NCBI GenBank assembly: GCA_963846055.1
Contig: CAWJUQ010000001.1
Coordinates: forward strand, 2,608 to 66,607
DNA from: an uncultured Alphaproteobacteria bacterium
GTDB lineage: Bacteria > Pseudomonadota > Alphaproteobacteria > Rhizobiales > Xanthobacteraceae
Length of the DNA stretch: 64,000 nucleotides
Direction: 5' to 3'
The notes below the pieces were generated by a model, which saw only the letters and a list, made by a program, of their open reading frames with translations, had not been told where the DNA came from and ran no database searches. The translations under genes and the position numbers were made by a program. Below, piece by piece: positions 1 through 19,123 of this stretch. The number at the start of each line of letters is the position of its first letter. The stretch's first letter is position 1.

Positions 1-24
1 GCGGGCCGCGAAGCTGTCAGTCAT
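1..24 (-). CDS. 5' end (8 codons, MTDSFAAR) of a gene running off the left edge
   Basis: ATG at 24 preceded by AGGAG. It forms an ATGA start/stop overlap with the upstream isochorismatase-like gene. Too short to identify. Confidence 0.3.
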
Positions 25-726
25 CTCGCGCTCCTTTCGAGCTGCCGTCGCGCCGACCGCCCGAGCACGGCGTCGGTCGGGAGCACGACGGCGAAGTTGT
101 TGTTGAGCCGGCGAACGGCGTCGGCGTGCAGCGTCCGGCTGACGGTCGGCGCAGGCGTCCTCGACGAGCACGACACGGTAGTCGAGGTCGCAGGCGTCGC
201 GCACGGTGCTCTCGACGCAGCCGCTCGTGACGACGCCGGTCACGAGCAGGTTCTCGACCCGAGCTGGGCGAGCAGGCGCTCGATCGCGGTCGACCAGAAC
301 GGGCTCGCGGTCGTCTTGTCGAGCACGAAGTCGCCCGCGCAGCACCTCGAGCTCGGGCAGGATCGCCGCCTGCGGGTCCTCGCTGCCGACCGCGATCCCG
401 AAGTCACGAAAGCGCCGGCCGTTGTCGCGCGCGTCGGGGGTCAGCGAGCGGCAGCGGACGTAGATCACCGGCTCGGAGCGCGCGCGCAGCGCCGTCGCGA
501 GCCGGCGGACGTTCGGCGCGACGAGCTCGGCGACGCGCTCGAAATAGTCCGCGAGCTCGTGCCAGCGGCCCTGCTCGCGTGCCCGCTGCGCGTGCTCCCC
601 GTCGGCGGCGGCGTCGAGCACCTGAAGGTCGACGACGACGAGCGCGCTGCGCCCGCCGCGAGGTCGGCGGGCACGAGCCGCCCGATCAGCGCGCGGACGA
701 CCTCGTTTTCGGAACAACGTCACTCA
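21..726 (-). pseudogene. Isochorismatase-family (cysteine) hydrolase, reading frame broken several times
   Basis: Minus-strand translation gives SENEVVRALIGRLVPADLAAG, ALVVVDLQVLD, EPVIYVRCRSL, DFVLDKTTASPFWSTAIERLL and ENLLVTGVVTSGCVESTVRDACDLDYRVVLVEDA (family signature with catalytic Cys). These pieces are spread over at least 3 frames. The start is approximate. Confidence 0.6.
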
Positions 727-765
727 CGATGTCCTCCTCGTCGGTGGCGGTGGTATACACGACGC

Positions 766-1146
766 CTGCGCGTCACGAGCCTCGATCACCTCGTTCTGAC
801 GGTCGCCGACATCGAGCGCACGATCGCGTTCTACGAACGCGTGCTCGGCATGGAGGCGCAGTCCTACGAGGGCGGCCGACGGGCGCTGCGCTTCGGCTCG
901 CAGAAGCTCAACCTGCACCAGCTCGGCGCCGAGCCCGCGCCGCGCGCCGCGCGCGCCACGCCGGGCTCGGCGGACCTGTGCTTCCTGCTCGACGGACCGC
1001 TCGAGCGGGCGATCGCGCACCTCGACGCGGAGGGAGTGCCGGTCGAGCACGGCCCGCTCGTGCGCCCGGGCGCGCGCGGCCCGATGCGGTCGGTCTACTT
1101 CCGCGATCCCGACGGCAACCTGATCGAGGTCTCGCAACCGCTCTAG
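766..1146 (+). CDS. VOC / glyoxalase-bleomycin-resistance family protein
   Basis: The last ~125 aa of ORF 97..1146 read LDHLVLTVADIERTIAFYERVLGM...VYFRDPDGNLIEVSQPL. There is no canonical in-frame start near 766, and the ATG at 729 is in another frame, so the N-terminus is uncertain. Confidence 0.65.
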   Translation: MRVTSLDHLVLTVADIERTIAFYERVLGMEAQSYEGGRRALRFGSQKLNLHQLGAEPAPRAARATPGSADLCFLLDGPLERAIAHLDAEGVPVEHGPLVRPGARGPMRSVYFRDPDGNLIEVSQPL

Positions 1147-2140
1147 CGGCCCGTGACGGGACGGCCGGGCGCAGGCCGACCGAGCTCAGGCCCGATCGGG
1201 AACGAGTCGGAGTGCTCGTGCCACCACTCGGCGATCTGCAGCCGCGTCGCGAACCAGACGTCGCCCTTCTCGTGCGCGTACTCGAGGAAGTCGCGCAGGG
1301 CGCTGATGCGGCCCGCCTGCCCGATCAGCCGCGAGTGCAGGCCGAGGGACATCATCCGCGGGTGCGTCGCGCCCTCCTCCCACAGGTAGTCGAGGCCGCG
1401 GCGGCAGCAGGTCGAGGTAGTTGGACGGGTCCGAGAAGCCCTGCGGGAGCACGAACTTGGCGTCGTTGTAGGTGAAGCTGTAGGGCACGACCAGGTGGCG
1501 CTTGCCGGAGACCTCGACGTAGTACGGGCAGGTCGTCGTTGTAGACGTCGGAGTCGTAGACGAAGCCGCCCTCCTCGACGAGCAGCTCCCGCGTGTGGAC
1601 CGACGGGCCGTAGCGGCAGTACCAGCCGCGCGGGCGCTCGCCGCAGGTGCGCTCGATCGAGGCGATCGCCTCGTGCGATGTGCTCGCGCTCCTCGTCGCG
1701 GGAGAGCAGCCACGGCTCCTCCCAGCGCCAGCCGTGCGAGCACGGCTCGTGGCCGGCCTCGCGCACCCACTGCGCCGACCTCGGGCATTGCGCTCGCACG
1801 AGATCGCGCAGCCGAACATGGTGATCGGGATCTCGAACGAGTCGATCAGGCGCTGGACGCGCCAGACGCCGGCGCGGCTGCCGTACTCGTAGACCGACTC
1901 CGCCGCGAGGTCGCGGTACTGCGGGTCCATCGCGTAGGGGATCTCGGCGCAGCGCGGCCTCGCTGCGGCCGTCGCCGGCGACGTTCTTCTGGACCTCGGA
2001 GCCCTCCTCCCAGTTGAGCACGATGCTCACGGCCACGCGAGCGCCGTTCGGCCAGGTGACCTTCGGGCACGTGGCGCCCGTACCCGATCGAGATCGCGCT
2101 TCGGGCCCGGCCCGTCGATCTCGACGAACTTCACTGCCAT
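1143..2140 (-). pseudogene. Polysaccharide deacetylase family protein, PuuE-allantoinase-like, frameshifted
   Basis: Pieces lie in three frames: MAVKFVEIDGPG, WPNGARVAVSIVLNWEEGSE, ESVYEYGSRAGVWRVQRLIDSFEIPITMFG, EPCSHGWRWE, GWYCRYGPSVHTRELLVEEGGFVYDSDVYNDDLP, LVVPYSFTYNDAKF and HPRMMSLGLHSRLIGQAGRISALRDFLEY. Confidence 0.7.
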
Positions 2141-2226
2141 CGTCAGCCTGCCTTTCCTCGCTGGTCCGCCGGCGCTCCGCCGGTCGCTTCCGGATCGGCG
2201 CCGCCACGACCGTGCGCGGCGGCCGC

Positions 2227-3474
2227 TCACGTGCCGGGGCGGGCGCGGCGATCACGCCGTCGCGGGCGAGCGCGGCGATCTCGTCCTCGCCGTAGCCGAG
2301 CTCGTCGTGGAGGATCTCATGGTTGTGGGCGCCGAGATCCGGCGCCGCAGCTGCGGATCCGGCCGGGCGTGCCCGAGCAGCCGCGGGATCACGTTCTGCA
2401 TCTTGAGCGGCCCGAGCACCGGATGCTCGACGGTGGTGATCGTGTCGCGCGCGAGGAACTGAGGGTCCTCGAAGATGTCGGCGATCGAGAGCACCGGCGC
2501 GATCGCCGCCGACGACCTCCTCGAAGGCGCGGATCACCTCGTCGGCGTCGCGCTCGCGCGATCCAGGCGCCGATCGCCTCGTCGAGCTCGTCCTGGTGCG
2601 CGAGCCGGCCGGCGTGGTCGGCGAACCACGGCTCGTCGACGACCTCGGGGCGGCCGACCAGCCGCATCACGCGCTCGGCGATCGACTGCGAGCTGGCCGA
2701 CAGCCCGAGCCAGCGGCCGTCGCGCGCGCGGTAGGCGTTGCGCGGCGCGGTGAACGGCGCGCGGTTGCCGACGCGGTTCTGGACGATCGCCGAGCTGGTC
2801 GTAGACCGAGCTCTGCGGGCCGAGGATCCAGAACAGCGGCTCGTAGATCGAGAGGTCGATCACCTGGCCCTCGCCGCCGTGCTCGCGCCAGCACAGCGCC
2901 ATCATCGTCGCGAAGGCGCCGGTCATCGCCGGCGACGCCGTCGCCGAGCGCGAACGGCGGCAGCGTCGGCGGCCCGTCGGGGAAGCCGTTGATGTGGGCG
3001 TAGCCGGACATCGACTCGGCGAGCGTGCCGAAGCCGGGGCGGCGTCGCGTAGGGGCCGGTCTGGCCGAAGCCGGTCGTCCGCACCATGACGAGGCCCGGA
3101 TTGGCCGCGTGCAGCTCCTCCCAGGTGATGCCCCAGCGCTCGAGCGTGCCGGTGCGGAAGTTCTCGATGAAGACGTCGGCGGTCGCGAGCAGCCGCTTCA
3201 GCGCGCGCCGCGCCGGCCGGGTCCGACAGCTTCAGCGTCAGCGAGCGCTTGTTGCGGCCGATCAGCGCCCACCACAGCGAGACGCCGTCCTTCTCCCAGC
3301 CGAGCTTGCGCAGGTTGTCGCCGCGTCGGGTGCTCGACCTTGATCACGTCGGCGCCGTAGTCGCCGAGCATCGTCGCGATCACCGGGCCGGCGAACAGCG
3401 ACGCGGCGTCGACGACGCGCACGCCGCGCGAGCGGCAGCGGCCCGTGGCGCGGCGCCGGCCGTCCGGCGCTCAC
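2227..3474 (-). pseudogene. Family III CoA-transferase (CaiB/BaiF type), frameshifted
   Basis: Fragments [110 protein letters not shown] and IADIFEDPQFLARDTITTVEHPVLGPLKMQNV lie in at least 5 frame segments. The GTG start makes a GTGA overlap with the CitE-like stop. Confidence 0.7.
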
Positions 3475-4365
3475 CGGCCGGCTCCCCGGCGGTCGCCTCG
3501 AAGCTCTCCCAGCGGTCGAGCTTGCGGCGCGCGAGGTGGTAGATCGGGTAGTCGACGAAGCGCCCGTCGATCGCGGATCGACGCGACGCCGCGCGCACTC
3601 GGCCTCCTCGAAGGCCTCGACCAGGCGCCGCGTCGCCGCGACCTCCTCGTCGGTCGAGCTCGCAGAACGAGCGCTGCGATCGGCACGACCTGCGGCGGGT
3701 AGACGCAGACCTTGCCCTGGAAGCCGAGGCTGCGCGGCGCGGCGGCAGTCGTGCACGAGGCCGTCCTCGTCGGTGAGGTCGAGGTAGGGGCCGTCGATCG
3801 GCGGCACCATGCCGGCGGCGCGCGTGGCGACGACGACGCGCCCGCGCGCGTACGCGAGCTCGGCCTGGCCCGCGGTCAGCTCGACGCCGAGCGCGACCGA
3901 GAAGTCGCCGAGCCCGAAGATCGACGTCACGGTGCGCGGCGGCGCGCGCTCGAGGATCTCGTCGCAGCGGACGATCCCGCGCGGCGTCTCGACGATCGCG
4001 AGCACGCGCACGCGTGCCGGGCTCGAGCCGCTGCTCGCGCTCGGCGGCGCCGAGCAGCGCGTCGACCGCCTGCGAGCGTCTCGGCGTCCTCGATCTTCGG
4101 CACCAGCATCGCGTCGAGCTCCGGGCAGACGACGGCGGCGATGTCCTCCTCGAGCCGGCCGGTCTCGATGCCGTTGACGCGCACGGTCACGACCTGGCCG
4201 TCGCCGTAGGTCGGGATCGCCGCGCGCGTGGTCGCCCGCGCGGCGGTCTTCTCCTCGTCGGCGACCGCGTCCTCGAGGTCGATGACGATCAGCGTCGGCG
4301 CCGAAGGTGCCGACCTTCGCGAGCTTGCGCTCGTCGCTGCCCGGTACGAACAGCAGGGCGCGCAT
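3471..4365 (-). pseudogene. HpcH/HpaI aldolase / citrate-lyase beta (CitE)-like acyl-CoA lyase, frameshifted
   Basis: MRALLFVPGSDERKLAKV, TVRVNGIETGRLEEDIAAVV..MLVPKIEDAETL, LAIVETPRGIVRCDEIL, FGLGDFSVALG, AAGMVPPIDGPYLDLTDEDGL and IDGRFVDYPIYHLARRKL sit in different frames. Confidence 0.7.
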
Positions 4366-4500
4366 GAGCTGCGATTCCCAATCGATCACGGCGCCCGTCT
4401 CTCCCACGGCCTCGTTCGCGTTACAGGTACAGCGATACAATATAGGATCGAGGCCGGCGGAGCGCCCGGCGCCCGCGAGGCGGGAGCCGGCCGCGGCCGC

Positions 4501-4869
4501 TCAGCCCGGGGCCCGCGCGGGCTCGGCGGCCGCCGGCCCCGCGGCCCGCGGTGCGCGCTCGCCCGTGCGCACGCTGATCACGATCCGCGGTCCGAGGGCG
4601 AGGATCGCGGCGGCGGCGGCGACCAGGCCGCCGGCGACCGCCCAGGTGAGCGGCCACGAGTGCGCGCGATCGCGCACCACGCCGAGCAGCGGAGGGAGCG
4701 CGACCACGCCCAGGTAGAGGAAGATCAGGCCGCGCCCGGTGGCACGACCGAGCTTGGCGTCGCCCGCCCGGTCGGTGAGCAGCGCCATGTAGACGCCGTT
4801 CCAGCCGATCGAACAGAAGCCCACCAGCGCGACCACGACCCACAGGGCGGATCCCCGTGCCCCCGCGCT
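4501..4869 (-). pseudogene. C-terminal fragment (last ~2 TM helices) of an MFS-type transporter, truncated at the junction
   Basis: WVVVALVGFCSIGWNGVYMALLTDRAGDAKLGRATGRGLIFLYLGVVALPPLLG. GC-rich coding continues up to about 4869 and then stops abruptly at the composition break. Confidence 0.5.
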
Positions 4870-4917
4870 AGCAATACGTCGTATGCCCGTTGTCGTCCTT
4901 GATTCGTACGTATTGCT
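4870..4917. other. Probable ONT ligation-adapter remnant (read-to-read chimera scar); also a 10-bp inverted repeat
   Basis: 4871-4879 GCAATACGT equals the start of the Y-adapter bottom strand GCAATACGTAACTGAACGAAGT. 4908-4917 ACGTATTGCT equals the end of the top strand AATGTACTTCGTTCAGTTACGTATTGCT. The A at 4870 fits a dA-tail. 28 garbled nt lie between them, against 31 expected. Confidence 0.65.
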
Positions 4918-4944
4918 TTCCTGTATTATCAGGCGACATTCGGT

Positions 4945-5187
4945 TCACGCCGTGATGCATGTGCGCCGTGCCATCCGGACCAGAAGCGAGATTTCGCGTC
5001 GTCGAAGACGAATCGCCTCAGCCGTGTGGCGGCCGTGTTTGAAAGCATTTTTATTTCCCTTCGGCGCGCCCGTTGAGGTCCCGCCGTGCATGCGGCAACG
5101 GCCGTTCGGCATCGCGGGCGATCGGCACGGGATCCCTTTGCGCGTCCGGGCTAAGCGCCGTCGCGCCTGGTGCATAGGCAAGTCCAT
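4945..5187 (-). CDS. HGG-motif protein (CRxPAMPNGRCRMHGGxSTGAPKGNxNAxKHG) typical of alphaproteobacterial integrated elements
   Basis: ORF 4945..5247 contains PCRSPAMPNGRCRMHGGTSTGAPKGNKNAFKHGRHTAEAIRLRRR. The start is uncertain (Met at 5187 or 5175). It overlaps the upstream ORF by more than 100 nt. Confidence 0.5.
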   Translation of the reverse strand: MDLPMHQARRRLARTRKGIPCRSPAMPNGRCRMHGGTSTGAPKGNKNAFKHGRHTAEAIRLRRREISLLVRMARRTCITA

Positions 5188-5710
5188 GGGGTTGTTCCTT
5201 AACTTCGTTCGGTACCCCGCCCCCCTTGGTCTCAACATTGCCGACAATGGCTTGGCCGCCTTCGTGGACGTGGACGTGCTCTACCGTGACCTTTTGCTGT
5301 CCCTTGCCACGGTGCCGGTTGAGAGCCTCGAGAAGTGTTGCATACGTCCGCGAGAGCTTGTTTGCCTGGTTTAGATTCTCACGGCGGCCGTCGAATGTCT
5401 GCTCGCGTATCATGGCGCGCCGGTAGCATTCCATCGAAGCACTGTGACAGGCTATGAGCTGCGCTGCGATCATCCCTTCGAGTTCGTCTTGTGGCTTTAT
5501 TCCAATTAGACCGGAGAGCGCGGCAGTTTGCTGTTCTTTTTTGGTATCCTCATCGGAATTTTCGAAGACAAACAGCGTCCGAAATGTCTGATGTACGAGG
5601 ACACTGTTCCAGTCATCTGACTGCGATCCGCCAAAAGGTTTCAGCTGACCCTGGTGTTTCGATGGGTCAACGGCGGCCTTTGATTTTTCGTTCGGCTTTT
5701 TCACGGTCAT
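5051..5710 (-). CDS. Conserved hypothetical protein of integrated elements
   Basis: ORF with a Met at 5710 (MTVKKPNEK). Contains GGSQSDDWNSVLVHQ, DELEGMIAAQLIACHSASMECYRRA and QQKVTVEHVHVHEGGQAIVGNV, a pattern I recall from genes next to HGG-motif genes. Function unknown. Confidence 0.5.
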   Translation of the reverse strand: MTVKKPNEKSKAAVDPSKHQGQLKPFGGSQSDDWNSVLVHQTFRTLFVFENSDEDTKKEQQTAALSGLIGIKPQDELEGMIAAQLIACHSASMECYRRAMIREQTFDGRRENLNQANKLSRTYATLLEALNRHRGKGQQKVTVEHVHVHEGGQAIVGNVETKGGGVPNEVKEQPHGLAYAPGATALSPDAQRDPVPIARDAERPLPHARRDLNGRAEGK

Positions 5711-5732
5711 GCTGAGGTCAATCTGTTGCGCG

Positions 5733-5975
5733 TCACGAGGTGGCATTCAATGTGTGGTCAAGATGGGCATACAAAGCATCGCGAACGGCGCTCGAGTCGT
5801 TACGCGTTTCGGGTTTCAGCAATCCTCTGTGGATAAGCGCCTCAATTTCCGTTGCGCGTAACTCGATAGAGAGGCAACGCAGCCCATCGCGCCGTCGTTC
5901 GCGGTGGCGACGCATTCGTTCGGCCGCTGAAGATCCGCCGCTTTGTTTTTGATCTGCCGATTGGACTTCGGTCAT
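5733..5975 (-). CDS. Small basic protein, possible DNA-binding or regulatory protein of the element
   Basis: Met at 5975 with a purine-rich stretch upstream. Contains AAERMRRHRERRRDGLRCLSIELRATEIEALIHRGLL. The 14-nt overlap with the next ORF suggests an operon. Confidence 0.45.
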   Translation of the reverse strand: MTEVQSADQKQSGGSSAAERMRRHRERRRDGLRCLSIELRATEIEALIHRGLLKPETRNDSSAVRDALYAHLDHTLNATS

Positions 5976-6064
5976 CGCCCGCCCTTTCCCGCGAGCTTTC
6001 TCACTTGCTGCGCCATCGCGGCACCCTGCCGTTTTTTGTCGTTGCGCTAGCTGATGGCGGGGTC

Positions 6065-6736
6065 TCATCGAGCGGTGCCTCTTTTCACCCGCCCGCCTTT
6101 TTTGATCCCCGGAACCGGAATTTTTGGCGCACCGGGAAAGCTCGGGGCGTTTTTCTGAAGGGAGGCAAGCGTGGCCGCCGTTTGTGCCGACATATTCTTT
6201 CCGGCATTTTTAACGAGCGACGCGACGTAATTCGGTTTAGGTGGGTTGATGAAATCCTGCTGCGTGGGCGGATTGAAAATCGACGGTGCTACGCCGCCCG
6301 CGTCGAATTCCTCGATCCGCTTCGCCGACCGCGTGCATATACGCTGGCTTTGGGCCGAGCAACTCGTCTTGTATTCTGCCGAGAGGACCCTTCCGCTCCC
6401 TGTTCGCCGTTGCGAGTTCTCCTCCAGGATCATCAGCGCTTCTAGTCGATGCAGCGCTGCTGCCGGCGGGTCCACCGTTGTCGTAGCGCTTGGCCGACCG
6501 CCCGCCACGGCGGAATTTATCCAGACGATGCTTCGTACGGCCGCCTTCGGCGGGCATTTGATGCAAATCGCCTTTTGGTCTTGCCCGAGCCCGGCACCGT
6601 TTGCTCTTCGATTGCTTGGTAAATCTCAGAATGGCTGTCCTGGGATGACGTCCTTCGGCGCTGCTGTTGTAGCTTGTGGCGGTGTTTCACGGTTAAATCC
6701 TTTCGTGTTGTCGACTACGCAATATTGGTTGCTCAT
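6065..6736 (-). pseudogene. Hypothetical (phage-related?) coding region, frame unclear
   Basis: ATG at 6736 overlaps the VRR-NUC stop (ATGA), but the frame closes after 36 codons. Plausible coding text continues in two other frames (ORFs 6237..6566 and 6065..6508, e.g. IEEFDAGGVAPSIFNPPTQQDFINPP). Confidence 0.3.
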
Positions 6737-7239
6737 GCTGCGCGCCCTAGCAGGAGCTTCCAGGCTTCGAGGGTGTGCAGGGCCTGGTCCAAGCCATTAG
6801 CGATCGCCGCCTCACCGCCGGCAGCGCGAAACTCGGAGATGAATTGCATTTGGGCTGCGCTCGGGCGTCCCCGCTCGGTTTTCAGCTCGAGAGCGAACGC
6901 CTGGCCGTCGTGGAGCAGGATCAGGTCTGCCACACCGGCGCGAACGCCTAGACCGTTGAAGATCGCCGCTTCCACCGGGCTGCGCCGGCCACCGTTGGGC
7001 GTGTGCCACCAAACGAGACCGCTCGCACCGCGTTGGCGAAGGTGCTGGCACACGGCGCGTTGGACGGTTTGTTCAGAGCTGGCGGGCCGCATCAGTGATT
7101 GATAGCCAAGGCGAACGCCCCGAGTTCGACCTTTGAGACTCACCTGCTCGTTTTGGATAGCGCCCTCTAGGGTGGTAGCGGCCCTCCCCCGCAAACGCAC
7201 GGGCGGCCTTTTGTAGGGCATTGCGAATCCCTGCTTCAT
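6733..7239 (-). CDS. VRR-NUC domain nuclease
   Basis: SEQTVQRAVCQHLRQRGASGLVWWHTPNGG...GVRAGVADLILLHDGQAFALELKTERGRPSAAQ, which carries the PD-(D/E)xK motif (D..ELK). The Met is at 7239 or 7221. Confidence 0.65.
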   Translation of the reverse strand: MKQGFAMPYKRPPVRLRGRAATTLEGAIQNEQVSLKGRTRGVRLGYQSLMRPASSEQTVQRAVCQHLRQRGASGLVWWHTPNGGRRSPVEAAIFNGLGVRAGVADLILLHDGQAFALELKTERGRPSAAQMQFISEFRAAGGEAAIANGLDQALHTLEAWKLLLGRAA

Positions 7240-7555
7240 GCCGCCCTCGCTGCGCCGAGGTGTAGAACGAAGCTTAGACTCTGCGTCGGGGGGGCAGATG
7301 GAAGCGGGCACCCGGCACCAACAATGCCTCAATACCGCAGAAGACGGGCCATCGATCCTCAGCCGCGGACTACGCTCTCCGAAACAACCCCGCGCGCCAA
7401 TTGGGTGGTCGTCTGTCCGTGCCTCGCGCCCTTGTCGCCCGCGATCCGCGCGCTTGACGCCACCGATCTGCGTAGTGCTGCGCACCGCCTCCCCCATCGG
7501 CGCACACGCGATCACAATAAGCAGTTTCACGAAACAGTTCGTCTGCAACAGAACT

Positions 7556-7647
7556 TCTTCAAACCAAAAAGAGAAGGCACGACGCTTCTTTGCAAATCAT
7601 TTTTGTGAAACTTATTTCCACTTCGAATTTCTTTGTCTTCAAACCAA
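7556..7647. repeat. 12-bp direct repeat TCTTCAAACCAA (7556-7567 and 7636-7647) inside an AT-rich non-coding stretch
   Basis: Read directly. The same region also has related GTTTCACGAAAC, TTGTGAAAC and GTTCACGAGAC motifs. Confidence 0.5.
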
Positions 7648-7773
7648 GTTCACGAGACACAAAGCAAACGCATTATCGTCAGAAAAACGAACCGCATTGC
7701 CCGCGAGAAATCAGGAACTGCTTCGCGCACGAATCGTTAGCGCTGAATGCAGCAGATGCGAAGGAGAAGATTC

Positions 7774-8244
7774 ATGTCGGCAAGAACCACAGCTTTGGCC
7801 GCGACCGCCGTGCTATTGGCCAGCACAGCGTTCGCCGCCGCACAAGACGATGCCTACCAGAATGGGCGAGATCAATACTCGCGGAACATGCCTCAGAATT
7901 ATCGAGGCCAGGTCGCGCGAAATGGAATGCCCGACCGCGCGGCCCCGCGCGATTGGAATAATGGCGACGCTTATGTCAGGCGCGGTTGGGACAATGGCGA
8001 TGCCTACGCCGGGCGCGATTGGAACTATCGCGACGCCTACGCCGGAAATTACATCGACAATGGACAATACGGATGGGGCTTTCGCGGCACCGGCTACTAT
8101 GATTACGCGCCCGGTTACGCCGCCGTGCCCGGCGGATATTACGATCAGGCTTATTGGCGCGGCGTTTACAACGTAGCGCCGAGTTTCTCACCGGGCATGG
8201 ACCCTTACGCCGGCACGTACTTTTACGGCGTGGCGCCGTGGTGA
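7774..8244 (+). CDS. Secreted Tyr/Gly/Asp-rich repeat protein
   Basis: AAGGAGA 7 nt upstream of the ATG at 7774. Signal peptide MSARTTALAATAVLLASTAFAAAQD. Has three DWNNGDAY / GWDNGDAY / DWNYRDAY repeats. Confidence 0.6.
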   Translation: MSARTTALAATAVLLASTAFAAAQDDAYQNGRDQYSRNMPQNYRGQVARNGMPDRAAPRDWNNGDAYVRRGWDNGDAYAGRDWNYRDAYAGNYIDNGQYGWGFRGTGYYDYAPGYAAVPGGYYDQAYWRGVYNVAPSFSPGMDPYAGTYFYGVAPW

Positions 8245-8303
8245 GCTGCCCGAAGGGCGCGTTGTAAATTCAGCGTAGACCGAAGCGATAGGTCACGCGG
8301 CGA

Positions 8304-8340
8304 GAAGGGCGGCCTTAAGGCCGCCCTTCGTCGTTTGTCT
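8304..8340 (+). terminator. Rho-independent-like terminator
   Basis: GAAGGGCGGCC-TTAA-GGCCGCCCTTC, an 11-bp stem, followed by GTCGTTTGTCT. Confidence 0.6.
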
Positions 8341-8356
8341 GCGCATAATATGCGCA
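8340..8356. promoter_or_regulatory. Palindrome TGCGCATA-A-TATGCGCA, candidate operator
   Basis: Perfect 8-bp arms, about 170 nt upstream of the MBL-fold gene start. Confidence 0.25.
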
Positions 8357-8527
8357 TCGGCGGTCGATCACGGAAACTTCATAAAACGCCGGCTTACCGA
8401 TCGGCACTAGAAATTTTCATCGAGCGATTTAAGACGCTATTATTCGCCGAAGATTTTCTCGCCCCTAGCGAAACGTGAATTACGTCGCCGCATTCGCGGC
8501 ATGCGTTGACCAAACGGGAGACAATGA

Positions 8528-9496
8528 ATGGCGACGTTGACGCGCCGAACGCTGCTCGCCGGTTCTGCGCTGACCGCTCTCACGGGCCGCGCCGATCTTG
8601 CCGCCGCGGCGGCGCCGCCGGCAGGCGCGGAAGTTCCCGGCATCTATCGTTACCGGATCGGCTCATTCGAGGTCACTGCGCTCTATGATGGGATCTGGTA
8701 TCGCCCGATCACCGATAAATTCATTCGCAACGCTCCGTTCGCCGAAGTGGAGAGCGCGCTGGCGGCCGCGTTCATGCCGGCTGACAAGCTTGCAACTCCC
8801 TTCACCACGCTGATCGTCAACACCGGAAAGCGGATGATCCTGATCGATACCGGCACTGGCGGCCAGATCGCGCCGTCGGCCGGCGCGCTTCGCGCCAACC
8901 TCGCAGCCGCCGGCGTCGATGCAAAAGCAATCGACGTCATCGCCATCTCGCACTTCCATCCCGATCACATCAACGGCATCAAGGACAAGGACGACGAGCT
9001 GGTCTTTCCCAACGCCGAAATTCTGGTGGCCGACGACGAATGGAAATTCTGGATGGATGACGCCAATTTAAACGCCGCGCCATCCGACCTGAAATCGGCG
9101 TTTCGCAATCAGCGCCGAATATTTTCGAGCATCGCCAGGAACGTGACGCGCTTTTCTCCCGGCGCCGAAATCGCGCCCGGCGTTGTGGCGCTCGCAGCGC
9201 CGGGGCACACGCCAGGGCACACCGTGTTTGCCCTCTACTCCGGCGATCAATCGCTCCTCGTCCTCGGCGACACCGCGCAGCATCCTGCGGTATTCGCCCG
9301 CCATCCCGATTGGCAGGCGGCCTTCGATATCGACGGCGACGCCGCGGTCGCGACGCGAAAAAAGCTGTTCGAGCGCGCGGCGGCCGACCGGATGCTGGTC
9401 ACCGGCTATCACTTCCCCTTCCCGGCTTGCGGCCATCTCATCAAGACCGCAAGCGGGTTCGAACACGTACCGGTGGAATGGCAGCCGAATTTGTAA
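8528..9496 (+). CDS. MBL-fold metallo-hydrolase with Tat-type signal peptide
   Basis: N-terminus MATLTRRTLLAGSALTAL. Has the HFHPDH (HxHxDH) motif and GHTPGH. Confidence 0.8.
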   Translation: MATLTRRTLLAGSALTALTGRADLAAAAAPPAGAEVPGIYRYRIGSFEVTALYDGIWYRPITDKFIRNAPFAEVESALAAAFMPADKLATPFTTLIVNTGKRMILIDTGTGGQIAPSAGALRANLAAAGVDAKAIDVIAISHFHPDHINGIKDKDDELVFPNAEILVADDEWKFWMDDANLNAAPSDLKSAFRNQRRIFSSIARNVTRFSPGAEIAPGVVALAAPGHTPGHTVFALYSGDQSLLVLGDTAQHPAVFARHPDWQAAFDIDGDAAVATRKKLFERAAADRMLVTGYHFPFPACGHLIKTASGFEHVPVEWQPNL

Positions 9497-9586
9497 TCAC
9501 ATTTGCTCGAACAACATCGAAGTGTCGTGCTCAAGTTGCGTCCGATGCTGTAGGATCGAGTCCGCTCGCAGAGAAAGGATCCGGCT

Positions 9587-10120
9587 ATGAACTCATTGCG
9601 TTCGCTTGCTGCTCTGCTTTTCCTATCGTCCATTTTGGTCGCGCCGCAGATTGCGCTGGCCGCTGGCGAAGATTCGCCAACGCCTCCGCCGCCCACCAAC
9701 CAGGGCAAGCAGAATAATCAAACCAAAAAGCCGAAAACCGACAAAAGCAGCTCCGCCGAAGACTTCCTCCGCGGCTATCACGCCGCTTATGCGCTGATTT
9801 ACGACAGAGCGGACTTTGAAGGCGGGATCGCCGCGCTCCGGGCGCTCGGCTATGACGATCATCCCGACGTCGCCACCCTGATTGGTTATGCCAGCCGCAA
9901 GCTCGGCCGCTATGACGACGCAAAAATCTGGTACGAACGCGCGCTTGCGGCCGACCCCAACCATGCCGTCACCTGGTCGTATTACGGCATGTGGCAGGCC
10001 GAGCAGGGCAACGTCCTCAAAGCCAAAGACGACCTTGAAAAGGTGCGGCTGATTTGTGGCACCGATTGCCGGGCCTACAAGATGCTCAAGGATGCAATTG
10101 ACGGTACGGTGACGTACTGA
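9587..10120 (+). CDS. Secreted TPR-repeat protein
   Basis: Signal peptide, then a Pro/Lys-rich linker, then TPR-like GRYDDAKIWYERALAADPNHAVTWSYYGMWQAEQGN. Confidence 0.65.
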   Translation: MNSLRSLAALLFLSSILVAPQIALAAGEDSPTPPPPTNQGKQNNQTKKPKTDKSSSAEDFLRGYHAAYALIYDRADFEGGIAALRALGYDDHPDVATLIGYASRKLGRYDDAKIWYERALAADPNHAVTWSYYGMWQAEQGNVLKAKDDLEKVRLICGTDCRAYKMLKDAIDGTVTY

Positions 10121-10126
10121 CGCCGA

Positions 10127-10459
10127 TCACGACTCACTTTCCGTTTCGCGCATGATCCAGGCCGCATAGTCGGGGTCAACGCTCTCTATCGGAATAACCA
10201 GCACGGCCGGCGTGGTGTAGGAGTGCATCTCCTTCACCGCTATCCTCACGGCATCTGCAAGTGTGGCGCGGGTTTTCACTAGCATCACGACTTCGTCACC
10301 GCGTTCGATGGCACCTTGCCACCAGTAGTAAGATATCATCGCCGGCAATATGTTGACGCAGGCGCAAAGCCGGCGTTCGACCAACGACCGCCCCGCCCGC
10401 TCCGCCTCGACAAGGGATGGAAAGGTTGTGTAGACGAAAACGGCGCGTTCCATTTCCAC
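10127..10459 (-). CDS. cutA: Divalent-cation tolerance protein CutA
   Basis: [47 protein letters not shown]...[14 protein letters not shown]. Confidence 0.8.
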
Positions 10460-10480
10460 ACTCCATCAGCGCCCAATAGT

Positions 10481-11269
10481 ATGCCAAAGCGCCGTAGTTC
10501 TTCACGCTACAAGCACATTGCCTTTGTCGCCAGCGACACACCGTCGGCGCAGCAGGCCCGCCGCCGCCTCATCCGCCGGTACGGCGACGTGCCGCCGGAG
10601 CGCGCCGATGTCATTGTAGCGCTCGGCGGCGACGGCCTGATGCTGACCACGCTGCAGCAGTTCATGAATTCCGACAAGCCGATCTACGGCATGCACCGCG
10701 GCACGATCGGCTTTCTGATGAACGAATTTTCCGAGCAAAAACTCACGGAGCGGCTCAACGCCGCCCATGTCAACGTCATTCATCCGCTGCTCATGCGCGC
10801 GCGCGACGCGAGCGGCCGCGTCCACCGCCACCGGGCGATCAACGAAGTCTCGCTGTTTCGCCAGAGCTACCAGGCGGCACGCCTGCGCATTCTGGTTGAC
10901 GGGGAGGAGCAGCTTAGCGAGCTCGTGGCCGATGGCATATTGCTGGCGACGCCCGCGGGCTCGACGGCCTACAATCTTTCGGTTCAGGGACCGATCATTC
11001 CCATCGGCGCGCCGCTTCTGGCTTTAACGCCGATCAGTCCGTTTCGGCCGCGCCGCTGGCGCGGCGCCCTTTTGCCCGATCGTGCCAACGTCACCATCGA
11101 GGTCCGCGAATCGGGCAAGCGCCCGGTTGCCGCCGTCGCCGACCATGATGAGGTGCGTTCGGTGCGTTCAGTCGAGATCAGCATGGACCATTCGAAATCC
11201 ATGCACATGCTGTTCGATCCCGGCCATAGCCTCGAGGACCGGATCCTGCGTGAGCAATTCGGATATTGA
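10481..11269 (+). CDS. nadK: NAD kinase
   Basis: Internal Met of ORF 10316..11269. Contains [23 protein letters not shown] and [14 protein letters not shown]. 262 aa. Confidence 0.85.
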
Positions 11270-11278
11270 TCGCGGGCT

Positions 11279-12451
11279 TTAAGCTGCCTGGGGCTGAAGC
11301 TCGGGCTCGAAAATGTCGTCGAGCATATCGTCGCGCAATTGGCGCGCTTCTTCGCGGGCAGCTTCGGTCGCAAAACGGCGCAACAAGGTCAGCAGCGGCG
11401 CCAACTCATCGAGCGCCTCGTTCTCACAGCCAGTGAGTACGCGCTCGATCATCCGCCGTTTCAGCCTTGCCGACCCGCCCGGTTCGCTGGTCAGGTCGCC
11501 TTCGCGCATGGCTTCGATGGCCTGTTTGAAGGCCGAATAAGTCGACGGCGGCAGGCCAGCGCGATCGAATAACGCGCGCAGGCTTGCTGCGCCGCCGTAG
11601 TGAATGACCGTGCTCACCCGCTTTGTCGTCATTTCGCTCAATTCGGCCATTGCCTCCTCGAACAACGTCACGTTGCCAGACAGGAAAGCGCGCAAGATCA
11701 ACCCGGCGGTAAGCTGACCGCTGGCCCGCAAATGGCGCACGAGCGGCCGCACCTCAACCGTAGGCGTGTCGGCCGCAACTGTCACAGTCGCCTTCTCGCA
11801 GGCTTCACGAGCGACGAGCAGGGCGCGCTCGGCGTTGAGCCACCGCCGTCTGGCGACGAAGTCGACCAGCAATTCCGATACTTTGGCAACCAGCGCCAGC
11901 CGGGTGGACGGCGCAATGTCGTAACGCGCCAGCAATGCTTCGCGCAGCGCCGCGACACCGCCCAATCGCGCGACCATGCGATCGATCGACACGGGCGCAA
12001 TATCGGCCGCCGGATTTTGCACCAGAGCCAGACAAGCGCTGGCGCCGCCGACCTCGGCGATGGCGCCCGCGACCGACCGCGGCAGCTCCGCGCAACTCGC
12101 AATCGCCGCCTGAACCGCTTCCGCCCCGGTTGCGACCGCGTCCACCAGGTCGGCATCGACGAACAGTGGCGACGCGGCCAAGACCACCGACGCGATCTGC
12201 GGCTGATCGGCCGCCAGCGCCAGGACGACAGCCGGCGGGGCATTCGGACTCGCCGCCAACGCCTCGGCGAGCGCCCGCCGCACCAGCGGCGACGGATCGT
12301 CGAGCAGCATCAGCATCGCGCCTTCAGCGGCCCTAACGTCGTCAGTGGGGAGATCGGAATGAAGGTAAGCGCTAGCGAGCGCGCATGTGGCTTCCGCCCT
12401 TTGCGTCGCCGATGTCGAACGAACCCCATTGAGAAAATGGCGGACAATCAT
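11279..12451 (-). CDS. DUF2336-like HEAT/ARM-repeat protein
   Basis: A 390-aa Ala/Leu-rich repeat protein containing DDPSPLVRRALAEALAASPNAPPAVVLALAADQPQIA. Family assigned from memory. Confidence 0.55.
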   Translation of the reverse strand: MIVRHFLNGVRSTSATQRAEATCALASAYLHSDLPTDDVRAAEGAMLMLLDDPSPLVRRALAEALAASPNAPPAVVLALAADQPQIASVVLAASPLFVDADLVDAVATGAEAVQAAIASCAELPRSVAGAIAEVGGASACLALVQNPAADIAPVSIDRMVARLGGVAALREALLARYDIAPSTRLALVAKVSELLVDFVARRRWLNAERALLVAREACEKATVTVAADTPTVEVRPLVRHLRASGQLTAGLILRAFLSGNVTLFEEAMAELSEMTTKRVSTVIHYGGAASLRALFDRAGLPPSTYSAFKQAIEAMREGDLTSEPGGSARLKRRMIERVLTGCENEALDELAPLLTLLRRFATEAAREEARQLRDDMLDDIFEPELQPQAA

Positions 12452-12711
12452 TGCTTTGCGCCACGCTGGCCTGAACCGATGTCGATGCTAGAAGGCGGCT
12501 GTTAAAAAATCGTTCACCATAAATCTTTGCAAAGGTTACCGCTGGCATCGCCGTTTCCGTTCCCCAAAAGCGAGCGAGATCGTGGGAAGACACCCCACTG
12601 ATGCTCGCGGATTGGCCCGCCGCTTCGCCAGCGCGTGTCTTGGGCTCGTCTTCGCGGTAAGGGGAGATTAATCTTTATGGTAAACGGACGATTAATGCAG
12701 GGAGATCGGCA

Positions 12712-13197
12712 ATGACGAATCAAGCGGCCCAACGGCACAAGCGGGGCGGCCTCTATTTCGAAGGCTTTATCCCCGGCGAAGTGATCGAGCACCGCTATAC
12801 GCGCACCGTCACGCAGATGGACAACATGTTGTTTTCAAACATGACGCTCAATCCGCAGCCGCTCCACATCGACCGGCATTTTTGCGAGCAGGAAACCGAG
12901 TGGGGTCAGCCGCTGATGAATTCGCTGTTCACGCTCGGGCTGATGATCGGCATGTCGGTGAGCGATCTCACCGTCGGCACCACGATTGCCAATCTGGGAA
13001 TGAGCGACGTTAAGTTCCCTCACCCGGTGTTCGAAGGTGACACCCTGCACGCGACGACCGAGGTCATCGGCAAGCGTGAGTCGAAATCGCGGCCCGGCGC
13101 CGGGATCGTCGAGCTTCATCATCGCGCCTACAACCAGGACAACAAACTTGTCGCTGAATGCCGCCGCTCGGCGTTTATGCGGATGCAGCCGAAGTGA
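12712..13197 (+). CDS. MaoC-family (R)-hydratase / dehydratase
   Basis: Hot-dog fold pattern: MLFSNMTLNPQPLHID, VKFPHPVFEGDTL and VELHHRAYNQDNKLV. Confidence 0.75.
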   Translation: MTNQAAQRHKRGGLYFEGFIPGEVIEHRYTRTVTQMDNMLFSNMTLNPQPLHIDRHFCEQETEWGQPLMNSLFTLGLMIGMSVSDLTVGTTIANLGMSDVKFPHPVFEGDTLHATTEVIGKRESKSRPGAGIVELHHRAYNQDNKLVAECRRSAFMRMQPK

Positions 13198-13252
13198 TGC
13201 GGACGAGGGCCTTCCGGCCCTTGCTTGCCGGTGATACGATTCACCCGTAGGC

Positions 13253-13654
13253 TTGGGTATGAGCAAACTGGGTAGAAAGCGCTACTGGCGGCCCTTGATC
13301 GGGGTCGTCGTCGCTTATGCCGTTGCCGTCCAAAGTCTGCTCATCGCGCTTGGCGGCTTTGCGCTTGCCGCGGCCGCCCCGACCGATGATGCTCCGCCGG
13401 CATTCGAACTATGCTTGCACGACGGCGGCGCGGCACCTGCCCTTCCTGCCGGGGCGCCGACCCATGCCCCATGCACTCATTGTATCTTTTGCTTTGCCGG
13501 AGCGAGCCCTGCCGTTATTGGGTCGCCGCCAGCGCTGATCCGTATCGCGCGATTTGAGTTTGTCGAGATTTCCTGGGCGCGCACGCAACAACGGGCGCCT
13601 CGTGTCGCCGATCATTCAATAGCAAGTCCCCGAGGGCCTCCGCCTCGAGTGTGA
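13253..13654 (+). CDS. DUF2946-like small membrane protein (Cys/His motif) at the head of the copper cluster
   Basis: One TM segment, then HAPCTHCIFCF. Sits directly upstream of the PCuAC gene. Confidence 0.45.
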   Translation: MGMSKLGRKRYWRPLIGVVVAYAVAVQSLLIALGGFALAAAAPTDDAPPAFELCLHDGGAAPALPAGAPTHAPCTHCIFCFAGASPAVIGSPPALIRIARFEFVEISWARTQQRAPRVADHSIASPRGPPPRV

Positions 13655-13779
13655 CGCTTGAACCGCCATCAGGCGGCTTTTGAAGTGCAGGGCTTCGCGG
13701 CCCTCTTCGCCAGCTCAATTTGCCAAGGCCGAACCCGGGCGCATGTGCGTTCCGACGGCGCATGGCACGGAGGACATCA

Positions 13780-14340
13780 ATGAGTAGTTTTTATCGGAAC
13801 ACCCTCATTTGCCGGACCGCCGCAGCGCTTACGCTGAGTATGATGGCGTTCGTCGCACCCGGCGCGTACGCCAGCGGCTACGACGTCGGCTCAATTCACA
13901 TCACGCAGCCGTGGGCGCGGGCGACGCCGAAGGGCGCATCCGCCGGCGCGGCGTACATGACCATCAAGAACGACGGCGCGGCTCCCGATCGGCTGAGCTG
14001 TGTTGCCAGCGACGCCAGCACCGGTTGCCAAATTCACAGCATGACCATGGACAACGGCGTCATGAAGATGAGGCCGGTGGAAGGCGGCGTTGAAATCCCG
14101 CCCGGCGAAACCGTTGTGCTGAAGCCGGCGGGGCTGCACCTGATGCTCACGGAGCTCAAGCACCCACTGGAGCCCGGCAAAGTCGTGCAGGCGACATTGC
14201 TATTCGAGAAGGCGGGAACGATCAAAGTCGACTTTCCGATCGCCGCGATTGGAGCGTCCGCTCCCGGCGGAGCCGCCGCTCCGGCCGGCGGCAGCATGAT
14301 GATGAACCGCGGCGGCATGATGCAAATGGACAAGCACTGA
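13780..14340 (+). CDS. Periplasmic copper chaperone PCuAC (DUF461) with Met-rich C-terminal tail
   Basis: GGAGGA upstream of the ATG at 13780. Signal peptide. Contains ITQPWARATPKGASAGAAYMTIKN and CQIHSMTMDNGVMKMRPV. The tail reads GGSMMMNRGGMMQMDKH. Confidence 0.8.
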   Translation: MSSFYRNTLICRTAAALTLSMMAFVAPGAYASGYDVGSIHITQPWARATPKGASAGAAYMTIKNDGAAPDRLSCVASDASTGCQIHSMTMDNGVMKMRPVEGGVEIPPGETVVLKPAGLHLMLTELKHPLEPGKVVQATLLFEKAGTIKVDFPIAAIGASAPGGAAAPAGGSMMMNRGGMMQMDKH

Positions 14341-14414
14341 GGCTGCGCCGGTAACGCCGCCACCCGCGGCGGCACCTGTAAACCCGTGCTTATTCAACCG
14401 AAAGGAAATTCATC

Positions 14415-15380
14415 ATGTCGCGCTTTATGGCGCACGCGTGCGCATCCGCTCTCGGCCTCCTGCTGGTTTCACTGCCGCTGACCAACGCCTTCGCTCACTG
14501 CTTCGTCGGCGCGCGGTTCTTTCCTGCAACGCTGCTGATCGACGATCCGTGCATCGCCGATGAAATGTCCCTGCCGACCGTCAGCTGGTCGAAGTCCGGC
14601 GACGTGCCGCCGGCCACCGAATGGGACATCGAAGGCGAAATCTCGAAACGCATCACGGAGGATTTTGGCGTTTCCATCGGCGAGGGCTGGTCGCAAATCC
14701 GCCAGCCGGGCGCTCCGACGATGGCGGGCTTCGCCGACCTGGAAACAACGTTCCAATATCAGCTCCTAAAAGACCCCGCTCACGAAACGGCGATGCTGCT
14801 CGGCCTCATCGTCGATTGGGGAAACACCGGCGCCACCAACGCCGGCATTGGCACGCCTTACAGCATGATCACCCCGACGTATTATTTCGGCCAAGGATTC
14901 GGTCAGCTTCCGGATGATCTGAGCTGGGCCCGGCCCTTCGCCCTCACCGGACAGGTCGGATACCAAATCCCGACCAACTCCTACGACGTCGCGCAAGGAT
15001 TTTACATCCCGCAAGTCCTCGTTTACGGGGCATCGCTCCAGTACAGCATGCCGTATCTGAAATCGGAGGTGAAAGACCTGCAACTCGCCGACTTTTTCAA
15101 CCATCTGATCTTCATTACCGAGGCGCAGTTCTCGACGCCGGTCGCCAATAACTTCGGCAACTCCTACGAAACGACTGGCACCATCAACCCGGGGGCGATC
15201 TGGGTCGGCAGCTACTTTCAGGTCGGCCTTGAAGCCATGATTCCAGTCAATCGGGCGAGCGGAAGCGGGGTTGGTTTTCTTGCCCAGCTTCACCTTTATC
15301 TCGACGATATGTTCCCGACGACTTTCGGGCAGCCGCTGATCGGCGGCGGTTCGAATTCTCCTCGCCAAGCAACCTTCTGA
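14415..15380 (+). CDS. Outer-membrane beta-barrel protein (MetA-pathway/transporter-like family)
   Basis: Signal peptide ending NAFA, alternating beta-strand-like pattern, and a C-terminal Phe. Confidence 0.45.
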   Translation: MSRFMAHACASALGLLLVSLPLTNAFAHCFVGARFFPATLLIDDPCIADEMSLPTVSWSKSGDVPPATEWDIEGEISKRITEDFGVSIGEGWSQIRQPGAPTMAGFADLETTFQYQLLKDPAHETAMLLGLIVDWGNTGATNAGIGTPYSMITPTYYFGQGFGQLPDDLSWARPFALTGQVGYQIPTNSYDVAQGFYIPQVLVYGASLQYSMPYLKSEVKDLQLADFFNHLIFITEAQFSTPVANNFGNSYETTGTINPGAIWVGSYFQVGLEAMIPVNRASGSGVGFLAQLHLYLDDMFPTTFGQPLIGGGSNSPRQATF

Positions 15381-15391
15381 AGGAGCGACCC

Positions 15392-15742
15392 ATGCAAAAG
15401 TACGTGACCCTCCTGTCGCTGCTGCTTTTGGCGCCCGGCGCCGCGCACGCTCACGCTTTTCTCGACCACGCTAGCCCGCTGGTCGGGAGCACGGTGGCAA
15501 CGGCTCCGCACGAGGTTGCCCTCACCTTCACGCAAAACCTCGAGGCGGCCTTCAGCTCGGTTCAGGTGACAGACCCGAAGGGAGTCCGCGTCGATCAAGG
15601 TAAAGCGCAAATCAGCGGCAACACCATGCGGATCAGCCTTAAAGCCGCGGGCCCGGGACGCTACCAGGTTCATTGGCATGCGCTCTCGGTCGACACGCAC
15701 AAGACCGAGGGAAACTTCTCCTTCACCGTCGGCGGCCAGTGA
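15392..15742 (+). CDS. copC: CopC-family periplasmic copper-binding protein
   Basis: Signal peptide, then the mature N-terminus HAFLDHASP. Contains YQVHWHALSVDTHKTEGNFSF. Confidence 0.85.
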   Translation: MQKYVTLLSLLLLAPGAAHAHAFLDHASPLVGSTVATAPHEVALTFTQNLEAAFSSVQVTDPKGVRVDQGKAQISGNTMRISLKAAGPGRYQVHWHALSVDTHKTEGNFSFTVGGQ

Positions 15743-15776
15743 GCCAGCGGGCGCATCGGCATAGTGGGAGACTCGC

Positions 15777-16760
15777 ATGGATGATCCGCTGATCTACGCG
15801 CGGGCCATTCATTTCGCCGCCACCATCACCGCCGCGGGCGCGATTTTCTTTTGGGCGTTCATCGCCCAACCGGCGTTCTCCAACGCGGAAATCGGAGCGC
15901 GCGCTCCCGCTATCGTGCGCGCCGGGCTGGCGTGGATGGTCTGGATCGCGCTCGCAGTTGCGGTGCTCTCCGGAGCCGCCTGGTTCGTCGTTGTCGCCCA
16001 ATCCATGAGCGAGAATTCGTTCGCTGAGCTTTTTTCCGAAGGCGTGCTTTGGACTGTTCTTCTGCAAACCGGTTTCGGGCGCGATTGGCTCGCGCGGTTG
16101 GTATTGGCATGCCTGTTGGCGGCGATCCTTGCGGCGTTCTCTCAGCGGCGCGGCAAAAGACCGGTAGCGGATGCTTTCGCAGTGGTTTTGGCAGGCGGAC
16201 TTGCCGGAACGCTGGCTTTCGCCGGCCACGCGGTTGGCGCGGAAGGCAGCGAAGGCATCGTGCACCCGGCAACAGACTTTCTTCATCTCGTCGCCGCTGC
16301 GGCTTGGGTCGGCATGCTTCTCCCGCTGACGCTCCTGCTTGCCGCCGCCGCGCGCGACAAAGCTTCGGTTGGCGCCGCGTATCCGGCCATCCATCGCTTT
16401 TCGAATGTTGGCCTTGTCACCGTCGGCGTTCTTCTGGTCACCGGCATCATCAACACGCTCTATCTCGCCGGCAGCATTCCCGCACTCACCGAGACCGACT
16501 ACGGCCGCTTGCTGCTGATCAAGGTGGCGCTGTTTCTCGTCATGGTCGCCATTGCCGCAATCAATCGGCAGATTTTGACCCCTCGCCTCATCGGGACGGG
16601 AAGCGCCGCAGCAAACCGCGAGGCGCTCGGCCGGCTCCGCCGCAACGCCGCTATCGAAGCCGGGCTTGGCGCTATCATCATCGTCATCGTCGCCGTGCTG
16701 GGGGTGACTCCACCGGGGCTTCATCAGGTCATGCCCGACATGCAGCATCATTCTCATTGA
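15777..16760 (+). CDS. copD: CopD-family inner-membrane copper protein
   Basis: A 327-aa polytopic membrane protein directly after copC (ARAIHFAATITAAGAIFF...). Confidence 0.8.
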   Translation: MDDPLIYARAIHFAATITAAGAIFFWAFIAQPAFSNAEIGARAPAIVRAGLAWMVWIALAVAVLSGAAWFVVVAQSMSENSFAELFSEGVLWTVLLQTGFGRDWLARLVLACLLAAILAAFSQRRGKRPVADAFAVVLAGGLAGTLAFAGHAVGAEGSEGIVHPATDFLHLVAAAAWVGMLLPLTLLLAAAARDKASVGAAYPAIHRFSNVGLVTVGVLLVTGIINTLYLAGSIPALTETDYGRLLLIKVALFLVMVAIAAINRQILTPRLIGTGSAAANREALGRLRRNAAIEAGLGAIIIVIVAVLGVTPPGLHQVMPDMQHHSH

Positions 16761-16813
16761 CGGAAGCCGCTTCGCAAAGCGACCATGACATGATCGCTTG
16801 CGGAGCATTATCC

Positions 16814-17698
16814 ATGCGCTCACTTCTGTTCGTCCCGGCGGATAGCCCGAAGAAGCTCGCGAAAGCTATGACCAGCGAGGCCGACGCGCTGATCGTCGAT
16901 CTCGAGGACTCGATCGCGCTCGACCGGAAAGCACACGCGCGACAAAGCGCGGCCGCGTTTCTCAAGGAAACTGTAGGCACGGCCGGGCGGCCTTATTTGA
17001 TCGTGCGCATCAACGGCTTGAAGACCGGTCTGATCGATACGGATCTTGACGTTATCGCGGCCGCGCAACCTGACGCCGTCATGCTGCCGAAAGCCGAAGG
17101 CGGGGCGTCAATTGCCAATCTCGATGCCAAGCTCGCAGTGCGGGAAGCCGTCAACGGGCTCACCGATGGTCACATCAAAATAATGGCCATCGCCACGGAA
17201 ACGGCCACGGCTTGTTCTGCGCCGGCACCTATGCCGGCTCAAGCCAGCGGCTCAGCGCGCTGACCTGGGGGGCGGAGGACCTGTCCGCCGATCTCGGGGC
17301 TGAGACCAACCGCAACTCGGAAGGCGTGCTGCTTGATCCTTATCGTTTGGCTCGGGTTCTCTGCCTCGCCGGCGCGGCGAGCGCCGGAGTGCCGGCGATC
17401 GACACGGTTTTTCCCGACTTTCGGGGAGAGCGACCGCGAAGCGTTTCGCCGGGAATGCGGTGCGGCGCGCCGCGACGGTTTCTCGGGCAAAATGGCCATT
17501 CACCCGACGCAGATACCGATCATCAATCAAGCCTTCACGCCAACGCGCGAGGCCATAGCGCAAGCCCAAGCGATCGTTGCTGCGTTTGCCGCCAATCCGG
17601 ACGCCGGCGTGGCCGTTGTCGGCGGCTCCATGGTCGACCGCCCGCATCTCGCGCGCGCCAGGCGATTGCTGGCGCGCGCCGAGACGCGGAAGGCTTAG
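16814..17698 (+). pseudogene. CitE/HpcH-like acyl-CoA lyase, two frameshifts (about 17205 and about 17425)
   Basis: MRSLLFVPADSPKKL..ALIVDLEDS..MLPKAEGG..IMAIATETA reads in frame 2. AGTYAGSSQRLSALTWGAEDLSADLGA reads in frame 1. RRDGFSGKMAIHPTQIPIINQAFTP reads in frame 2 again. Confidence 0.75.
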
Positions 17699-17702
17699 CG
17701 CG

Positions 17703-18947: not shown

Positions 18948-19123
18948 TCTTTCCTCCCAATTATATTGATTGCAGCGCGCCGACGCGCGCCGATCGCAGC
19001 TGAACACCGCTGTCGCCGTTTTAGCAAAGCGCGCGCGCTGTCGGCAAGGCAGAGCAAGGCCGCGCCAGCGATCAAAACGGTACGATCAAACAGCAGGGAG
19101 ATGGGCAGTCGCCCGCATAAATC

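Follow-up and report, generated by a model that had tools for sequence, protein, structure and literature searches.

The 64-kb window analysed here (the whole stretch of DNA, 64,000 nt) passes near position 4870 from one kind of DNA into another, which raises the question of whether the break belongs to a genome or to the data. A sequence-only reading had taken it for a Nanopore adapter scar. Two adapter ends lie at the break, in the order and orientation of consecutive reads, and four independent properties of the sequence switch at the scar: composition, taxonomy, gene integrity, and error density. Nothing biological underlies the junction, which arose as an artefact of sequencing or assembly, and we consider it likely that 4870-4917 is the scar of two molecules from an ONT ligation library that were read back to back and recorded as one sequence.

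Adapter sequences at the junction

Nanopore ligation adapters place AATGTACTTCGTTCAGTTACGTATTGCT at the start of a read and GCAATACGTAACTGAACGAAGT at its end (10.1101/2022.07.07.499093). Read directly from the window, the region 4860-4920 consists, in this order, of cccccgcgct, AGCAATACGT, cgtatgcccgttgtcgtccttgattcgt, ACGTATTGCT, and tt (the right flank continues as ttcctg). The scar itself is made up of three features:

4870-4879, plus strand: dA tail (4870) followed by GCAATACGT (4871-4879), together AGCAATACGT; GCAATACGT is an exact match to the first 9 nt of the ONT ligation end-adapter (bottom strand)
4880-4907, plus strand: spacer of 28 nt, cgtatgcccgttgtcgtccttgattcgt, presumably the miscalled remainder of the end-adapter plus the leader of the start-adapter
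4908-4917, plus strand: ACGTATTGCT, an exact match to the last 10 nt of the ONT ligation start-adapter (top strand), T overhang included

The end-adapter piece directly follows the dA of the first insert, and the start-adapter piece lies downstream on the same strand, directly before the second insert. The inserts on the two sides are discontinuous in their genomes of origin, in an MFS gene that is cut, in GC content, and in tetranucleotide usage. The sequence-only reading was right about the positions of both adapter ends and the 28 nt between them, as well as about the end-then-start order, the orientation, and the preceding dA.

Neither the scar 10-mer nor its reverse complement has a further exact copy in the 64-kb window. 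The compound pattern AGCAATACGT-N15-45-ACGTATTGCT occurs once in the window vs none in 100 dinucleotide-preserving shuffles, and base composition predicts 3.4e-7 occurrences per window. Inverted repeats as such are frequent, with 173 pairs in the window (10-nt seed, arms within 60 nt), and an inverted repeat by itself is therefore uninformative. When all 173 are taken as candidates, the expectation for adapter arms in the right order is 7e-5.

The 10-nt arms can pair with each other (DNA fold of -8.6 kcal/mol, z=-3.2) and lie 27 nt downstream of the stop of a minus-strand gene (5746->4945). A natural hairpin, either a terminator or a recombination site at the edge of an acquired region, could have this form, and an integrating element would then have interrupted the MFS gene. 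However, the expected number of natural repeats with ONT-adapter arms in that order is no higher than 7e-5. As a Rho-independent terminator, the structure is also atypical: there are no terminator-like sites in 4300-5500, and the stem has 40% GC, with a 28-nt loop and no T run.

Genes and taxonomy on the two sides

The DNA on the two sides of the scar and the genes that adjoin it are as follows:

1-4869, genes all on the minus strand: Solirubrobacterales-like actinobacterial DNA, 72% GC, very frameshift-rich, gene order as in Solirubrobacterales MAGs; encodes an MFS transporter, an HpcH-type CoA-ester lyase, a family III CoA transferase, and two further genes
4503-4869, minus strand: C-terminal fragment of the MFS transporter, about residues 300-415 (Pfam MFS_1)
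4918-64000: Xanthobacteraceae chromosomal DNA, about 62% GC, reasonably well polished
4945-5746, minus strand: HGG-motif protein of a widespread uncharacterised family, the first right-hand gene, with a frameshift near 5160

A stitched query of the left-hand genes gave 55 loci from 185,579 species genomes. The best of these were all from Solirubrobacterales MAGs (Actinomycetota), with 54-82% identity in the best segment, a matching order of MFS, HpcH-type lyase, and CoA transferase, and a GC content of 0.69-0.72. In one Solirubrobacterales MAG (MFD09368.bin.1.34), at about 10.8-12.6 kb of the locus, the CoA-transferase gene is split into two stop-to-stop ORFs in different frames; thus, residual indels also occur among the nanopore-only relatives used for comparison.

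The MFS gene ends at the adapter. Full-length relatives in Solirubrobacterales have 415 and 434 aa, and the window aligns, from base 4869, to residues 300-375 of the 415-aa protein. The alignment starts at 4869 in 5 of 12 metagenomic homologues as well. A search of the whole window with MFS residues 1-299 found nothing, even at E<=10. The gene is therefore cut mid-protein, at residue 300 of about 415, as had been read from the sequence.

The right-hand DNA has a different origin. An intact ThrRS (23347-25290) shares 85-90% identity with proteins labelled Xanthobacteraceae bacterium or Pseudolabrys, and 3.6 kb from the junction lies the gene of an MBL hydrolase that has 91% identity to a protein from a Xanthobacteraceae MAG. 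Gene order is conserved as well: 7595-19427 is collinear with two contigs (L162 and L163) at 83.6% nucleotide identity, and 13.8-31.3 kb is collinear with a third (L080), with one frameshift. Across 7941-9701, a short-read (MEGAHIT-named) contig of the same species is 98.35% identical, with a single gap in 1762 bp. The ThrRS and the collinearity with Xanthobacteraceae genomes show that the right 59 kb comes from an ordinary chromosome of this family rather than from an island. The family is placed in the Alphaproteobacteria, within the phylum Pseudomonadota. Classification by homologues thus bears out the proposal that two unrelated DNAs are joined, with Actinomycetota/Solirubrobacterales on the left and Pseudomonadota/Xanthobacteraceae on the right. 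The related proposal, that an apparent foreign island is an artefact, holds for the artefact; the label "island" does not apply to the right-hand DNA.

The gene next to the scar, that of the HGG-motif protein, is intact at its 3' end, and 27 nt separate its stop from the adapter. The protein carries ...CRSPAMPNGRCRMHGG... and has more than 557 relatives in JGI metagenomes (best, 68%), which cover the query to about residue 261-265 of 267. Together with a small basic protein and an ORF with a VRR-NUC domain, it forms a small, mobile-looking patch immediately right of the scar (4945-6068 and 6733-7548, both minus strand).

We also looked for the right breakpoint, 4917/4918, in relatives. Similarity to the closest Xanthobacteraceae relatives, L162 and L163, is lost left of about 6340-6700, and the stretch from 4918 to about 6340 is missing from both. 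Among 80 metagenomic relatives of the first right-hand gene, common DNA begins only at 5011 and runs rightwards. The relatives lack this variable region (4918 to about 6340) and therefore could not confirm the breakpoint.

The first 1.5-2.5 kb on the right, mobile-looking (HGG-motif, VRR-NUC) and absent from close relatives, is what the edge of an acquired region might look like, and it speaks for the natural junction with its hairpin. Several observations point the other way. Right of the scar lies ordinary chromosome that carries ThrRS, at least 59 kb of it, rather than an island in an actinobacterial host, and the rest of the MFS gene is nowhere in the window. The scanned ORFs next to the junction include no integrase, the edge has no direct repeat, and the only tRNA in the window is at 45.5 kb. 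A natural junction would also leave unexplained why error density jumps at the same base. We regard a natural hairpin at the edge of an acquired region as highly improbable. An Rfam search of the window returned that one tRNA only, and plasmid searches gave distant matches only.

Perfect 10-nt inverted repeats around a short non-coding segment would also suit a tiny IS- or MITE-like element of 48 bp. However, the 10-mer and the element are single-copy in the window, there is no target-site duplication (CGCGCT vs TTCCTG), and such an element would explain neither flanks from different phyla nor an MFS gene that does not resume. The coincidence with adapter sequences is equally improbable in this case (<=7e-5), and we find the element barely credible. 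There is next to no chance that the junction is real in the sense of a recent inter-phylum insertion, into a Xanthobacteraceae or an actinobacterial chromosome, whose boundary hairpin is identical to the ONT adapter ends by chance.

Composition and error density

GC content is 0.71-0.74 over 1-5000 and then 0.55-0.65 over the other 59 kb, with the fall located at 4850-4950 (50-nt resolution); the sharp drop from a very GC-rich left side had been noted from the sequence and is confirmed. Tetranucleotide usage changes with it. Measured as L1 distance, the left 4.87 kb lies 0.50-0.55 from each of twelve right chunks of equal size, vs at most 0.27 among the right-hand chunks themselves.

The two sides also differ in how many indels they carry. 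Compared with homologues, the left lyase gene has 3 frame changes, the CoA transferase gene about 6, and the next two genes at least 3, together at least 12 within about 4.3 kb. Thirteen genes on the right (7.7 kb aligned) have 1 frame change. This corresponds to an indel load of about 3/kb on the left vs about 0.1-0.6/kb on the right, and frameshift densities are about 20-fold apart. A homologue-free measure, switches of GC3 phase, gave 9 on the left vs 2-6 per equal-sized bin on the right. The sequence-only reading had called the sequence indel-rich, which is correct for the left side; the indels are not evenly spread, and the right side has few. An asymmetry this strong fits a low-coverage or single-read overhang on the left. 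It suggests that read support is very different for 1-4869 and 4918-64000, and 1-4869 may have been covered by little more than a single read.

The 28-nt spacer

The adapter ends enclose 28 nt that had been proposed to be a garbled adapter middle. The 3' half of the spacer, GTCCTTGATTCGT, loosely resembles GTACTTCGTTCAGTT. Alignment to LSK109- and LSK114-type adapters was not significant, and random 28-mers from the window score equally well against the adapter middle in 15% of cases (p=0.15). Against the 28-nt top adapter, the best local alignment has 25 columns, 20 of them matching, and two gaps; for the bottom adapter, the match to the scar is limited to 9 nt. By a Porechop-style standard (>=75% identity over the adapter), the sequence between the adapter ends is not recognisable as the rest of the adapters.

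We also compared the spacer with 32 empirical spacers from IMG/VR (described below). The likeness is marginal (p=0.03 against random window 28-mers, 0.2 against composition-matched shuffles) and is present in the minus orientation only (reverse complement ACGAATCAAGGAC...). By neither comparison could the proposed identity of the 28 nt be demonstrated; we infer that it is miscalled adapter. Since the stem of the adapter is self-complementary, the direction of reading is undecidable from it. The reverse-complemented spacer fits slightly better, a hint that the first molecule to be read was the Xanthobacteraceae one.

Comparison with known artefacts

An internal adapter is an accepted signature of nanopore chimeras, which arise in the sequencing run itself if one molecule is not split from the next (PMC6156371). 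After Guppy trimming, about 4% of the reads of one data set still had middle adapters (10.1101/2022.07.07.499093). The scar in the window resembles the usual middle adapter of an in-silico chimeric read, the target of Porechop and of duplex-tools split_on_adapter, in its adapter order after dA, its unrelated inserts, and its spacer length. It differs from the usual case in that it lies in assembled sequence and not in a raw read, and in that the adapter middle is unrecognisable, which places it below the usual identity thresholds of 75-85%.

We scanned IMG/VR for the compound pattern of AGCAATACGT followed by ACGTATTGCT and found 33 sites. All but one (32/33) are in 14 contigs of a single metagenome (3300049043), with spacers of 16-37 nt and with as many as 8 scars per contig (8 in _000188, 5 in _000152, and 4 in _000256). 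These scar-bearing contigs are catalogued as viral genomes (IMGVR_UViG_3300049043_*, within L003-L022 of our set) and look like concatenations of many nanopore fragments. With 32 occurrences in one IMG/VR metagenome, the adapter scar is a recurrent artefact.

The scars in 3300049043 share with the window scar the identical flanking 10-mers and partly garbled spacers, and the 28 nt of the window fall inside their range of lengths. Unlike the window scar, 27 of the 32 retain AACTGAAC, with which the end-adapter continues, directly behind AGCAATACGT; in 26 of these it starts at the first base. Most of them have AACTGAACGAAG adjoining AGCAATACGT, a feature absent from the window scar. The 3300049043 contigs also carry many scars each, whereas the window has one.

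The only IMG/VR match outside 3300049043 lies at 6195-6235 of IMGVR_UViG_2731957837_000001 and has an unrelated 21-nt spacer, AAGAATCACTAAAGTTGAGAC. A single match of this kind is about at chance level and is probably a natural occurrence by chance. Thus, the compound pattern without its context is no proof of a scar.

In a broader sense, the window resembles the cross-phylum chimeric contigs and contaminated MAGs of the class flagged by GUNC, with genes of two phyla and an abrupt switch in composition. Unlike that class in general, it shows a physical cause, the adapter scar at the switch point.

The nearest relatives on both sides are from soil metagenomes: Flye-named contigs of ENA assemblies ERZ250394xx-395xx and "MFD" MAGs. 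In Microflora Danica, libraries were made with SQK-LSK114, and reads were split with duplex-tools and trimmed with Porechop (PMC12313526). From such a splitting and trimming pipeline, only scars too garbled for recognition would survive. Passage through a pipeline of this kind would be a plausible explanation for the badly garbled spacer, one that rests on the source context of the relatives. Exact-protein look-ups with four intact proteins of the window matched no record, and Nanopore as its sequencing platform is thus presumed.

Origin of the join

A single chimeric read could have produced the junction as follows. Molecule 1 would end with its dA tail and the beginning of the end-adapter, A-GCAATACGT, and the pore would then take up molecule 2, with a start-adapter that finishes in ...ACGTATTGCT. 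Basecalling between the adapter ends would have been poor, and the read would have been neither split nor trimmed. A single library, probably from soil, would have supplied both molecules, one of Solirubrobacterales (actinobacterial) and the other of Xanthobacteraceae (alphaproteobacterial) origin. During assembly, a well-covered Xanthobacteraceae contig would then have been extended with the chimeric read, which would leave a low-coverage actinobacterial overhang with an error rate near that of a raw read.

The same adapters could also have been brought together after sequencing, if two adapter-tipped sequences, one with a terminus ...A-GCAATACGT plus a few nt (x) and the other starting with a few nt (y) plus ACGTATTGCT, had been abutted during scaffolding, binning, concatenation of records, or building of the window. 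Two short ragged termini might match both adapter middles as poorly as the spacer does, and two contigs of unequal coverage might differ about 20-fold in frameshift density; the sequence features do not separate a two-contig join from a chimeric read. However, there is no N gap or other separator at the junction, and the 28-nt spacing is in the middle of the range of the IMG/VR scars (16-37 nt), which lie within contigs. The window is also most simply a piece of one record, and about 3 frameshifts per kb on the left is closer to a raw or near-raw read than to a polished contig. We therefore regard a join after sequencing as rather unlikely, though it is the chief competitor among the readings considered. 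Altogether, the join most likely arose inside one unsplit read and not at a later step.

Consequences for use of the sequence

This finding matters for data hygiene and nothing else: before use, bases 1-4917 should be removed or the sequence divided at that point. If retained, these bases would make the contig look as though it held a cross-phylum "island," raise contamination or HGT calls, contribute a truncated MFS pseudogene, and misdirect binning. Pipelines that split reads at adapters can pass scars with a miscalled middle. A cheap screen for the two terminal 10-mers, 15-45 nt apart, exposed the 32 scars in one public IMG/VR "viral" contig set.

Other adapter-like sites

The ends of the window carry no adapters. 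Elsewhere, AGCAATGCGTAAGAGAAGAA at 29161-29181 (plus strand) matches the end-adapter in 17 of 21 aligned columns; we rejected it as a second scar because the homology of its host gene, which encodes a rhomboid protease, is unbroken across the site, and the likeness is thus due to chance. Another candidate, ACTTCGTTCGGT at about 5201, has a background-level score and was likewise attributed to chance.

Farther to the right, an AcrB/RND-type efflux gene looks split (33570-36948, plus strand). Pfam ACR_tran covers 1-554 of 1021 in the ORF at 33570-35819, and the remainder is presumably in overlapping ORFs in other frames. The split is probably a residual nanopore indel.
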